Below, piece after piece: positions 58,351 through 60,481 of a stretch of 64,000 bases of DNA. Under the pieces are notes generated by a model. That model did no database searches and was not told the DNA's origin. It saw only the letters and a list, made by a program, of their open reading frames with translations. The DNA lies in assembly GCA_045545475.1 (NCBI GenBank), contig JAZQAZ010000010.1, forward strand, positions 1 through 64,000, read 5' to 3'. Position 1 is the first letter of the stretch. Each line of letters begins with the position of its first letter. The translations under genes were made by a program, and so were the position numbers. This DNA comes from Clostridia bacterium. GTDB taxonomy: Bacteria > Bacillota > Clostridia > CAKSNL01 > HGM11501.

Positions 58351-59349
58351 ATGAAGTACAAAATTAAAAAATGTGTTTGGGAATTAACTACTGCATGCAC
58401 AATGAACTGTAAACATTGCGGTTCTAAGGCCGGAAATAAAAGGGACAATGAACTTAAATGGGATGAGGCTAAGAAAGTAGCAGAACAGCTTGTTGAATTA
58501 GGATGCGAAAAGGTTGCCTTAATTGGTGGGGAAGTTACATTGGTTCCATATTGGGCAGAGTTAGCACACTTTTTTTCGGTCAATAGTGTAGTGTGTGATA
58601 TTATAACGAACGGATACCGAAAATCCGAAAAAGATTATGAGCAGATTGCGAAATCTAAGGTACGGGCGGTGGCAATTTCTATTGACGGTTTTAGAGATGT
58701 ACATAATAAAATCAGAGGAAAAGATGATGCCTTTGAAGAATTGGAAAAATTCGTGGATAGATTGAATGAAATGCATATAAAGATAACGGCTATTACAACT
58801 ATAACAAAGGAATGTATCGCCGATTTACCTGAAATTTATAATTGGCTGAAGAGTAAAAAGGTAATTGCGTGGCAATGGCAACAAGTATCTCCGATGGGCA
58901 ATGCCAAGGATAATTTATTGAATTGCCTTTCGAAGGATGACTTACGTGAAGTGATAGATATTTATGAGAAACTGAGCGGGGCGGAAGTATTGCTGTCAAT
59001 GGCAGATAATATAGGTTATTATTATGCATATAAGAATAGATTGTTTCAACAATTTAAAGGTTGTGCGGCGGGATTATGCGTTATAGGTATAGATAGTGTT
59101 GGAAATGTAAAGGGTTGCGAGTCACTGTATGATGATAAGTATATAGAAGGAAATTTGCGAGAAGAAACATTAGCCGACATATGGAACGATGACACAAGAT
59201 TTTCTTATAATCGCAATTTCAGTATAGAATTGATGAGTGGCAATTGTAAAGAGTGTGATGTGAAACACATATGTGCCGGCGGATGCAGAAGCTTTAATGC
59301 ATTTAATGGCGAACTATATAATCATGTGAATTGTATAAAAAATATTTAA
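58351..59349 (+). CDS. Radical SAM/SPASM maturase resembling PlpX-type spliceases
   Basis: VWELTTACTMNCKHCGSKAG, LIGGE, ISIDG...HNKIRG, ADNIGYY, GCAAG...GIDSVGNVKGCESL, CKEC...CAGGC...C. Confidence 0.85.
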   Translation: MKYKIKKCVWELTTACTMNCKHCGSKAGNKRDNELKWDEAKKVAEQLVELGCEKVALIGGEVTLVPYWAELAHFFSVNSVVCDIITNGYRKSEKDYEQIAKSKVRAVAISIDGFRDVHNKIRGKDDAFEELEKFVDRLNEMHIKITAITTITKECIADLPEIYNWLKSKKVIAWQWQQVSPMGNAKDNLLNCLSKDDLREVIDIYEKLSGAEVLLSMADNIGYYYAYKNRLFQQFKGCAAGLCVIGIDSVGNVKGCESLYDDKYIEGNLREETLADIWNDDTRFSYNRNFSIELMSGNCKECDVKHICAGGCRSFNAFNGELYNHVNCIKNI

Positions 59350-59371
59350 AAATAGCGAATGGGGTGTAAAT

Positions 59372-59965
59372 ATGGAACTTAATAAATTGTTGGTCATAGA
59401 AAAACAATATATAGATGCATATTTAAATGCAACTATATTATCTAAAAATTATCTTGAAAAACTTTTAGCTGAGGTAAAAAACTTATCAACAACCATTACC
59501 GAAACAGTGATATATAAAAATATGTTTAACGTGATATCAACAGCTTATGATCTTGTATTGGATATGGAAGAATTATGTAAGAAAGCAGTTTTTATAGAGG
59601 GTGAGATGGCATATCCTGAAAACTATAAGTTTGAAGAGATATCAAATATAGAAAATAAAGTAAATACAGCAGAAAGATATGAATATTTAATGCATGAGCT
59701 ATATAACGCTATGAGAAAAATAGGAACAGAAAGAACTATTTTTGCAGCGATTAATATAGCTGAGGAAAAGGGAAATATTTACATGATAGAGTTAAAAGTT
59801 GCGAAAAATCAAATTGACAGTATGCAATGTAGAGAGTTATACGGTCCTCCAGATTTTGACGATGACTTTGAAAAAAATAGAGATGACATTACGCAGCAGG
59901 CTACAATATACGGTCCTCCGGATTTTGACGATGACTTTGACACTAGCTTTGGTTCTTGGAAATAA
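59372..59965 (+). CDS. Helical protein with duplicated C-terminal xYGPPDFDDDF core (candidate rSAM substrate)
   Basis: Ends CRELYGPPDFDDDFEKNRDDITQQATIYGPPDFDDDFDTSFGSWK; directly downstream of the rSAM gene. Confidence 0.75.
   Translation: MELNKLLVIEKQYIDAYLNATILSKNYLEKLLAEVKNLSTTITETVIYKNMFNVISTAYDLVLDMEELCKKAVFIEGEMAYPENYKFEEISNIENKVNTAERYEYLMHELYNAMRKIGTERTIFAAINIAEEKGNIYMIELKVAKNQIDSMQCRELYGPPDFDDDFEKNRDDITQQATIYGPPDFDDDFDTSFGSWK
59839..59940 (+). repeat. 33-bp direct repeat x2, 69-bp period
   Basis: atacggtcctcc(a/g)gattttgacgatgactttga at 59839-59871 and 59908-59940, one synonymous mismatch. Confidence 0.92.
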
Positions 59966-59986
59966 TCTTAAATACAGGAGTGTGTT

Positions 59987-60481
59987 ATGGAAAGGTTGAT
60001 ATTAAAAAACCGCAAGATTTTAGAAATGGTTTTCGTATTACATAAACAGTTGGGTATTATTTTTGATGAGTGGATTGTTGAACTTGAGCATCTCAAAGTA
60101 TTCAGTGGGATGGAAGTTCCGGAAGTTGATGCTGTGCATTTGTTGATGAAATGTCTGGAAGAGATTTTAGAAGAGTGTAATTATGGTAATATCGAAAGAT
60201 ACACCTTAGATTATCCCGAAAATTTCTCGGAAGAGTTTAACGAGACAATACTTCAAATTTATAAAACATACGAAAGAATTCTTCAAAAAATATGTAATCT
60301 CAAAGAAGGCATAACATCACTTATATTTAATAAGAAGATTGTATTAAATATGCCGGACTGTAGCTCTGATATGAGATTATTGTCAATGATAGCTGATGAA
60401 ATTAATATATATTTGAAGTTATTGACAGAAATACAGATTAAATGCAGAGAAATTAATACTATTTACGGAACAGCTTTATGA
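59987..60481 (+). CDS. Helical protein ending in IYGTAL (second candidate rSAM substrate)
   Basis: Shares YPEN, CRE and TIYG with the upstream protein. Confidence 0.7.
   Translation: MERLILKNRKILEMVFVLHKQLGIIFDEWIVELEHLKVFSGMEVPEVDAVHLLMKCLEEILEECNYGNIERYTLDYPENFSEEFNETILQIYKTYERILQKICNLKEGITSLIFNKKIVLNMPDCSSDMRLLSMIADEINIYLKLLTEIQIKCREINTIYGTAL

Follow-up and report, generated by a model that had tools for sequence, protein, structure and literature searches.

The stretch analysed here, which we call the window, comprises the first 64,000 nucleotides of contig JAZQAZ010000010.1 from a Clostridia bacterium (GCA_045545475.1). Towards its right end it encodes a cassette in which a short radical S-adenosylmethionine (SAM)/SPASM enzyme is followed by two proteins with tyrosine-containing motifs, the first of which is the probable substrate of the enzyme. 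The original prediction, made from the sequence alone, had described a splicease-like enzyme with two protein-sized xYG substrates, and all three open reading frames (ORFs) of 332, 197 and 164 aa were found on the forward strand as claimed. The cassette contains the following features:

58351 to 59349, + strand: radical SAM/SPASM enzyme of 332 aa, from a short (~340 aa) splicease-related clade (Pfam, NCBIfam, tree, invariant cysteines)
59372 to 59965, + strand: orphan protein of 197 aa and candidate substrate; two Tyr motifs lie in its acidic C-terminal tail (ORF and translation)
59837 to 59869, + strand: motif copy 1, LYGPPDFDDDF, with the predicted site Leu-Tyr-Gly (translation; matches h-Y-x-x-P)
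59906 to 59938, + strand: motif copy 2, IYGPPDFDDDF, a recent 34-nt duplication (translation, direct repeat)
59987 to 60481, + strand: 164-aa orphan protein ending in KCREINTIYGTAL, a weak candidate for a second substrate (AGGAG ribosome-binding site (RBS) 6 nt upstream)

The three genes are tightly packed, with gaps of 22 nt between the enzyme and the 197-aa ORF and 21 nt between the 197-aa and 164-aa ORFs, and an RBS-like sequence in each gap, the one ahead of the 197-aa ORF being G-rich. No small ORF lies between or after them, and no PlpY-like partner with a RiPP (a peptide made by the ribosome and then modified after translation) recognition element (RRE) was seen. Position 58351 is the likely start of the enzyme gene because a longer frame from 58267 lacks a Shine-Dalgarno sequence and has its ATG inside a hairpin loop, while alignments place the starts of homologues ~5 residues ahead of CVWELT, in agreement with the shorter frame.

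Pfam analysis of the 332-aa ORF identified Radical_SAM (PF04055, 82.3 bits with a cut-off of 29.5) and SPASM (PF13186, 31.3 bits with a cut-off of 21.5) domains. Both the radical SAM CX3CX2C motif and the full SPASM cysteine set are present, and an alignment of 26 homologues showed that C16/C20/C23 and the seven SPASM cysteines (C238, C256, C299, C302, C308, C312 and C328) are invariant. The top NCBIfam hidden Markov model (HMM) was TIGR04103 ('nif11-class peptide radical SAM maturase 3', 209.9 bits, E 4.7e-62), which we take to correspond to InterPro entry IPR026482, and the second was TIGR03913 ('GDL motif peptide-associated radical SAM/SPASM maturase', 186.6 bits); further families scored much lower (TIGR04133, 133 bits; MftC, 117 bits). 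In a tblastn search of 72,556 plasmids, the best matches (32–35% identity, E 5e-49 to 2e-47) were a Nostoc enzyme named as a nif11-class maturase 3 by the Prokaryotic Genome Annotation Pipeline (PGAP), four GDL-motif maturases and three unnamed or unannotated relatives, after which similarity dropped to 26.8% (E 2e-33) and, for MftC, 26% (E 3e-20). With TIGR04103 and TIGR03913 as the top models, the closest named families are PlpX-type, as had been proposed. The motifs that the original prediction had listed (VWELT, C..C.HCGS.AG, LIGGE, DNIGYY and GC.AG..GI..G..KGC.S) are likewise common to PGAP-named members of both families and differ in MftC, according to the alignment. Membership of the PlpX clade itself had also been suggested and does not hold, as both curated cut-offs are missed widely and the enzyme falls in a separate ~340-aa clade. 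The reference enzymes pass their own cut-offs (Nostoc, 853.1 bits for TIGR04103; Azospirillum, 760.6 bits).

Of 2430 candidates in a word-index search, 1277 proteins reached E ≤ 0.001, and the matches listed include at least 119 non-self homologues of 330–394 aa with 41–55% identity, from Clostridia, Bacteroidota, Proteobacteria and an archaeal metagenome-assembled genome (MAG). Within the same class, four loci encode the enzyme at 39–42% identity, which were the sole matches at E ≤ 1e-60 among 398 other scored genomes. Single-protein scans recovered four distant loci from genome contigs (33–37% identity) and two from viral contigs (32–34%). A metagenome scan identified 203 relatives among 597 matches; the results below come from the best 80 of these loci (individual loci carry L numbers), in 71 of which an enzyme ORF could be called.

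To place the enzyme, a quick IQ-TREE phylogeny (LG+G4, with support from the Shimodaira–Hasegawa-like approximate likelihood ratio test (SH-aLRT) only) was built from 111 distinct rows: the window enzyme, 28 database homologues, 66 metagenome-locus enzymes, three genome loci, three proteobacterial MAG enzymes, six plasmid enzymes (three of them PGAP-named references) and four rows labelled as outgroups. The nine of 80 metagenome loci without a detectable enzyme ORF, enzyme ORFs shorter than 300 aa and four identical duplicates were left out, and the named spliceases are represented by the PGAP-named references, with no experimentally verified splicease or RhaX among the rows. The TIGR04103 and TIGR03913 references form a clade of their own with the Aureibacter and Tropicibacter enzymes (SH-aLRT 100). 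Within the short clade, the window enzyme belongs to a 26-row group together with the 46–55% identical homologues and L015 (support 98), the sister of which is an 8-row group, L016–L023 (joint support 98), and most metagenomic enzymes fall in a 56-row clade (support 100). Long-branch warnings were raised for the outgroups and for the window enzyme (0.64), and Tropicibacter, an intended outgroup, grouped with the splicease references. Because of this placement and the sub-cut-off scores, we regard the enzyme, on sequence grounds, as splicease-related and as a member of neither TIGR04103 nor TIGR03913.

The neighbours of these enzymes show a recurrent pattern. In the four same-class genome loci, the enzyme adjoins a protein with repeated EVYAGPEFF, CVYAGPEYF or VYGGPDYF, at the end of which there is usually a zinc ribbon. 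The pattern [VILMACT]Y[AGFY][GPSA]P was found in an adjacent same-strand ORF in 58 of the 71 metagenome loci initially, and in 57 after removal of L015, whose one downstream match (AYAPP in a 570-aa ORF 440 nt away) is probably due to chance; all 57 lie upstream of the enzyme. When only loci with at least 400 bp on both sides are counted, 46 of 51 have an adjacent motif ORF. Among the 13 loci without a match, seven have less than 200 bp of upstream sequence, and the other six (L026, L027, L057, L059, L060 and L061) belong to a separate 8-row clade. Beside the enzyme the motif occurs 188 times in 70,187 aa, compared with four times in 249,883 aa of background (six-frame ORFs more than 1.5 kb from the enzyme), a ~170-fold difference in density. 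The expectation that homologous loci would keep Tyr-motif proteins beside the enzyme, which the original prediction had offered as a check, was thus borne out by the 57 metagenome loci and the four genome loci, and the finding that the cassette exemplifies is real and beyond chance. Because this association is clade-wide, the pairing of enzyme and substrate is well supported, and we consider it probable. The window enzyme also shares the features by which the short clade can be delimited (~330–350 aa, at least 40% identity and an adjacent same-strand motif ORF), a definition drawn up post hoc.

Across 155 distinct motif instances, the residue before Tyr is Val in 126, the second residue after it is Gly in 123 and Pro in five, and the fourth is Glu or Asp in 67. 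The usual partner carries two to 10 copies of VYAGP(E/D)(Y/F/M)(F/M) in acidic or proline-rich linkers and has a zinc-ribbon end, with a CxxC...CxxC pattern in 41 of 58 partners. Such VYAGP repeat proteins are encoded directly upstream of the ~340-aa enzyme gene in L011–L014 and L024–L094 (for example L085, about 4300–5440, and L011, 6240–6962). In the sister subclade L016–L023, the partners are small acidic peptides that bear signal peptides and contain VYFGPQYFEGDENDE or VYYGPDY. No Pfam or NCBIfam family other than zinc ribbons matched the partners, and a literature search on the partner motif strings and DUF1843 found no relevant paper in the collection searched.

The 197-aa protein fits this pattern in its own way. 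A six-frame scan of the 64-kb window gave six motif matches, two of which are in the 197-aa ORF; its h-Y-G-P-P-D-F agrees with the family motif at positions −1, Y, +3 and +4. Three xYG sites adjoin the enzyme: the 197-aa ORF has one LYG and one IYG, and the 164-aa ORF has a further IYG. The site rule published for spliceases is XYG (PMC11414181, PMC10533398), and the verified PlpA tags described are GGPIRPLYGLPI, with LYGLP, and ..GYGVVFP (PMC10533398). The window sites obey this rule, and those of the 197-aa protein share the Y-G-x-P arrangement of the PlpXY splice tag GGPIRPLYGLPI, which also occurs in a Nostoc Nif11 precursor (...ALYGLPPELF) beside the 853.1-bit TIGR04103 enzyme. The original prediction had noted a 33-bp duplication of (L/I)YGPPDFDDDF with a synonymous difference only. 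The duplication and the synonymous difference both stand and its length is corrected: the repeat (59838–59871 and 59907–59940) covers 34 nt at a spacing of 69 nt, with one mismatch, CCA/CCG, both encoding Pro.

Both candidate substrates are orphans. No homologue of the 197-aa protein was found in a search of 5.8 billion clusters (length band 108–345 aa), an exhaustive HMMER search of 1.84 billion representatives returned only the protein itself and two weak, spurious repeat proteins, and the protein atlas gave no usable match. A search within the length band 90–287 aa found no homologue of the 164-aa protein, for which the protein atlas gave only sub-threshold PA28-like leads (0.84). Neither ORF matched any Pfam or NCBIfam family, and hence no Nif11 or NHLP leader was detected; by Pfam, DUF1843 is also absent from the neighbours of the enzyme. 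An AlphaFold2 (AF2) model of the 197-aa protein from its single sequence was unusable (predicted local distance difference test (pLDDT) score 43.3), and complex prediction with the enzyme, which scored 0.00 in both runs, carries no weight for or against binding because the controls did not fold.

Orphan status, a strain-specific island and a very recent second motif copy would all be expected if the 197-aa and 164-aa ORFs were fast-evolving or decaying island genes, with YG sites that arose by chance and were amplified by the 34-nt duplication, and if the true partner of the enzyme had been lost. However, neither ORF is disrupted, each has an RBS-like sequence, the genes are closely spaced, the sole difference between the repeats is synonymous, and the 197-aa motif fits the family motif at −1, Y and +3 when the whole window yields only six matches in six frames. 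We therefore judge this explanation the least probable of those considered here and very unlikely.

For the 164-aa protein, the proposal of a third site at IYGTAL received no support from motif conservation. IYGTAL lacks the Pro, which does not exclude it because the verified tag ..GYGVVFP also lacks Pro at +3 (PMC10533398). The strings YPEN and CRE..hYG are collinear in the 197-aa and 164-aa proteins, but the similarity of the two does not establish paralogy (BLASTP E 0.28; shuffle z 0.84 for local and 1.15 for global alignment). Adjacency to the enzyme and these shared, non-significant strings make the 164-aa protein a weak candidate for a second substrate.

We propose that the 332-aa protein would act as a cytoplasmic radical SAM/SPASM protein maturase, the substrate of which would be the adjacent 197-aa protein. 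The enzyme would recognize the (L/I)-Y-G-P-P motifs in the acidic C-terminal tail of this protein, and the 5'-deoxyadenosyl radical would attack the motif tyrosine. The most likely outcome would be a splicease reaction, in which a tyramine equivalent (C8H9NO, −135.06 Da) would be excised at each xYG. The protein-sized product would be intact apart from the alpha-keto-beta-leucine and alpha-keto-beta-isoleucine (ketoamide) left in its backbone, and its electrophilic ketoamides might act on a protease-like target. We infer the chemistry, the modification of both motif copies and the action of the ketoamide on such a target. Splicing is favoured because spliceases are the nearest characterized relatives, the sites are XYG and they resemble verified tags; tyramine excision on the 197-aa protein is a plausible outcome, to which we would give slightly less than an even chance.

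Several observations weigh against splicing. The enzyme scores far below the curated cut-offs of TIGR04103 (725, compared with 209.9 bits, or 208.3 in a genome-wide search) and TIGR03913 (591.75, compared with 186.6 bits), and in the tree it lies in a 99-row short clade (SH-aLRT 86) outside the clade of these two families. The residue after Tyr in the partner motifs is Ala in 136 of 155 instances, Gly in eight and Phe or Tyr in 11, so the clade motif that had been anticipated as xYG has the consensus V-Y-A-G-P and does not assure splicing chemistry; the 197-aa motif is a minority form both in its Gly at +1 (8/155) and in its Pro at +2 (5/155). The motif pattern itself was defined post hoc from the data, and the 197-aa protein, as an orphan, has no homologues in which its own motif could recur. 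Within the 26-row subclade of the window enzyme, L015 is the only other locus with context, and its sole candidate partner is an overlapping 89-aa zinc-ribbon ORF with a near-motif, VVYAGRP.

Because the clade is separate and has Ala after Tyr in its consensus, it may carry out another Tyr-centred reaction. The same enzyme and substrate could then form a C–C or C–O crosslink from Tyr to a nearby residue, or undergo a desaturation or decarboxylation-type reaction, at h-Y-x-x-P. Other SPASM enzymes, such as MftC and PqqE, act on Tyr differently from spliceases, and the phylogenetic distance of the short clade from the named splicease families, the sub-cut-off scores and the departure of V-Y-A-G-P (with Phe or Tyr in the sister subclade) from the published XYG rule would all be explained. 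On the other hand, no closer named family exists, as the NCBIfam models that follow score at least 77 bits lower than TIGR04103, and the window's own sites are YG. Gly may also be inessential across the wider family: DUF1843 peptides encoded beside TIGR03913-type maturases in L097, L099 and L104 (Azospirillum and Aureibacter plasmids) have an x-Y-G, x-Y-A or x-Y-M site among their ~20 N-terminal residues, and the residue after Tyr thus varies. We consider a different Tyr chemistry rather unlikely for the window pair, yet a contender to be taken seriously.

The splicease-like cassette lies downstream of further genes in the same orientation, and two other features of the window bear on its context:

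58249 to 58290, + strand: strong hairpin with flanking A and U runs, terminator- or leader-like (RNA fold)
51535 to 58207, + strand: upstream array in the same orientation, with an ATPase, an 85-aa helical protein, LGVY domains and a membrane protein (Pfam, NCBIfam, alignments, AF2)

The hairpin (15 bp) is located between the gene for the 269-aa membrane protein of the upstream array and the enzyme gene. The segment 58208–58352 folds at −45.5 kcal/mol (z −5.7), and none of 200 shuffles was as stable; the hairpin resembles either a bidirectional terminator or a leader. A promoter-like TTGCGA-16-TATAAT occurs just ahead of it (58219–58246), and the promoter scan as a whole was not above shuffles (22 compared with 19.0, standard deviation 4.4). 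The same scan, whose loop limit misses the 58249–58290 hairpin, found no + strand terminator, and Rfam gave no match in 56000–62000. A search of sequencing runs matched no RNA run and one DNA run, with a 0.06 share of words.

The cassette stands at the end of an array of co-directional genes with low GC (0.33–0.38, compared with 0.36–0.44 upstream). Genes at 46882–54897 form a co-directional set that encodes, besides the ATPase, a Ser/Thr kinase in which one stretch resembles a zinc ribbon, a VWA protein, a PP2C phosphatase and a transglutaminase-like protein (50504–51511). This 1120-aa FtsK/SpoIIIE-type ATPase has weak EssC-like similarity (TIGR03928, 56.1 bits with a cut-off of 778.4). Alignments revealed three paralogous ~90-aa LGVY domains (55184–55510, 56713–57081 and 57110–57388), one of which is the N-terminal part of a 345-aa protein (55184–56221) whose match to C39-like peptidases is weak (20.6 bits with a cut-off of 24). 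In an AF2 model (pLDDT 82.8), the 92-aa paralogue takes the form of a helix-turn-helix in which LGVY, invariant in the three domains, occupies the turn. A Foldseek search of this hairpin against the PDB gave no matches at E ≤ 0.001 and returned generic helical hairpins, with EsxA at rank 42 (E 2.3). The layout of the LGVY domains resembles that of polymorphic toxins, and their sequences are neither WXG100 nor LXG. A 209-aa frame without a family match (56079–56708) overlaps the 345-aa peptidase-like gene at that gene's end. If translation began near 56235 (MNLEKL...), the product would have ~157 aa and would be encoded directly after the peptidase-like protein, where an immunity gene is usually found. 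After the cassette, three consecutive proteins of 340, 327 and 400 aa (60542–63889) share an N-terminal domain of ~110 aa (..EILRKTY..) and differ in their C-termini, which consist of a KATEERQ-type tandem repeat with membrane segments, Sel1 repeats and BspA-type leucine-rich repeats (LRRs), respectively; the Sel1 protein has LYYSPDE at 62024, one of the six motif matches in the window.

Searches of the 13 other genomes of the order (completeness 59–97%) recovered neither the enzyme nor the ATPase nor the 345-aa protein, and the array is therefore a strain-specific island. When 16 window proteins were searched by tblastn against all collected loci, only the LRR protein matched, and no related locus shares the other genes of the island. 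PADLOC identified no defence system and gave domain-level matches only, for the kinase (mad6/PD-T4-6), the ATPase (mad8/SspH) and the radical SAM enzyme (pVip, 71 bits). In the whole genome there was no PF06013 (WXG100) match at E 0.01 or better, no EssC over the cut-off (best 107.6 bits, elsewhere in the genome) and no YukC (best 18.2 bits), and our own WXG100 HMM found none in the window. Because of these absences, 'type VII-like' is at best an analogy for the island, and 'conflict locus', as the original prediction had it, is plausible as a description but loose.

The same data bear on whether the YGPPD motifs might be export or recognition signals unrelated to the enzyme, which would then act on another substrate or a small molecule. 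YxxxD/E is a type VII secretion signal, which Y-G-P-P-D fits; Glu or Asp is frequent at Y+4 in the clade (67/155), and the cassette lies downstream of an FtsK-type ATPase and helical-hairpin proteins. However, the motif accompanies the enzyme in 57 of 71 loci, and recognizable type VII components occur at just one of these (L064); most partners are zinc-ribbon proteins (41/58), and the genome itself lacks WXG100 proteins, EssC over the cut-off and YukC. We consider an export signal very improbable.

Two observations at related loci deserve mention. In L064 (5466–7056), an enzyme of the V-Y-A-G-P clade with 43% identity directly follows the gene for a 146-aa WXG100 protein that is over both cut-offs (TIGR03930, 46.7 with a cut-off of 44.85; PF06013, 39.9 with a cut-off of 27.3) and has an extra C-terminal tail with LYGAP, ending ...VMLYGAPNVILNP... 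Further genes of this locus include four or more for additional WXG100 proteins, one for a DUF4176 protein and one for a 482-aa protein with a helical N-terminus. As one of 80 loci, L064 provides a lead and not a pattern, and a literature search that joined type VII secretion, radical SAM and WXG100 found nothing relevant in the collection searched. In L002 (5439–5963), from a proteobacterial MAG, a 174-aa membrane protein ending ...TPDYGL is encoded upstream of a 399-aa relative (36% identity) and is another protein-sized candidate with a C-terminal xYG.

The cassette is best classed as encoding a maturase that is related to spliceases and belongs to an unnamed short clade, with candidate substrates that are protein-sized orphans, in a strain-specific island. 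What is new is the clade-wide occurrence of upstream h-Y-[A/G/F/Y]-[G/P/S/A]-P partner ORFs, in 57 of 71 metagenomic loci. Spliceases are, to our knowledge, the only route to beta-amino-acid ketoamides inside ribosomal products. Such ketoamides are described as protease-inhibiting warheads and protein-labelling handles (PMC11626197, PMC10533398). If the proposed reaction is correct, a compact, partner-free 332-aa relative whose natural substrates are protein-sized would extend the range of substrates known and could be a simpler engineering tool. The clade linked with V-Y-A-G-P repeat proteins, which comprises at least 119 listed non-self clusters (41–55% identity), may matter more, as this pairing suggests that gut-type anaerobes have a protein modification that is abundant and unstudied, and the WXG100 case of L064 together with the window island hints that radical SAM enzymes can chemically arm secreted or conflict proteins. 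In its broadest and quite speculative form, which we think unlikely, the idea would be that the ~340-aa clade is a large unnamed splicease-like branch in anaerobes that writes ketoamides or other Tyr-centred changes at h-Y-x-x-P of whole proteins. Among its targets would be repeat proteins with zinc ribbons, small acidic peptides resembling lipoproteins, the WXG100 substrate of L064 and the window orphans. In the window, the modified tails would be warheads that attack the island's proteins of cysteine-peptidase fold (the C39-like toxin domain and the transglutaminase-like protein) covalently but reversibly, and conflict-system proteins would thereby be armed after translation.

Among characterized enzymes, MftC is a SPASM enzyme that acts on Tyr of a ribosomal peptide, requires MftB and has its site at a C-terminal Val-Tyr; it shares 24–26% identity with the window enzyme, at 117 bits. 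The TIGR03913 enzymes are closer, as the second-best HMM match with ~32% identity and with neighbouring small proteins that contain x-Y-[G/A/M], but they have 474–516 aa and a C-terminal zinc-ribbon extension, and the Tyr site is N-terminal in a helical peptide of ~55–70 aa. The best HMM match is to the type I spliceases PlpX/PcpX, which, like the window enzyme, combine radical SAM and SPASM domains. TIGR04103 references share VWE(L/I)T, HCGS.AG, WQ.Q..PMGNA, (D/N)NIGYY and GC.AG..GI..G..KGC.S with the window enzyme, and PlpX-type systems have an adjacent gene product with xYG followed by x-P, as in the window. The window enzyme has only 31% identity to TIGR04103, is ~90 residues shorter and ends four residues after the last SPASM cysteine. 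Type I systems also employ PlpY/PcpY and Nif11 or NHLP precursors, whereas the window has no visible Y protein or such leader and encodes orphans of 164–197 aa. PlpX is listed as a member of IPR026482 (PMC11002830).

The absence of PlpY had been taken as unusual, but binary spliceases without a Y protein are already described, in hundreds of pathways typed by enzyme phylogeny and precursor identity (PMC11414181). The type II enzymes RhaX, RasX and RcsX from Rheinheimera resemble the window in having an enzyme and a precursor without a separate RRE protein, and their sites include LYG and MYG (PMC11414181, PMC11626197). As described there, these enzymes act on short leader–core peptides and the leader helix is proposed as an activator; in the window, the 'leader' would be a ~150-aa domain, the comparison with RhaX being by description only. 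Leader-independent splicing of engineered proteins is also reported (PMC11414181, PMC10533398). Because binary spliceases are known and engineered proteins have been spliced in this way, neither the lack of PlpY nor a protein substrate is new in principle.

Scott et al. 2022 (Chem 8:2659) is said, going by its title only, to concern protein substrates. According to a review, these authors screened 3418 radical SAM-SPASM proteins for YG-rich neighbours, which turned up in 189 genera, with 27 of the pairs confirmed (PMC10849128). A screen for YG frequency could have missed a mostly-YA clade. Among the closest counterparts of the window cassette are the V-Y-A-G-P systems of the short clade, from gut- and rumen-type metagenomes, which have an enzyme of the same clade and the same length (40–55% identity) and an adjacent Tyr-motif ORF. 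They differ in that their partner is encoded upstream and ends in a zinc ribbon, whereas in the window it is encoded downstream, has no zinc ribbon and carries hYGPPDF.

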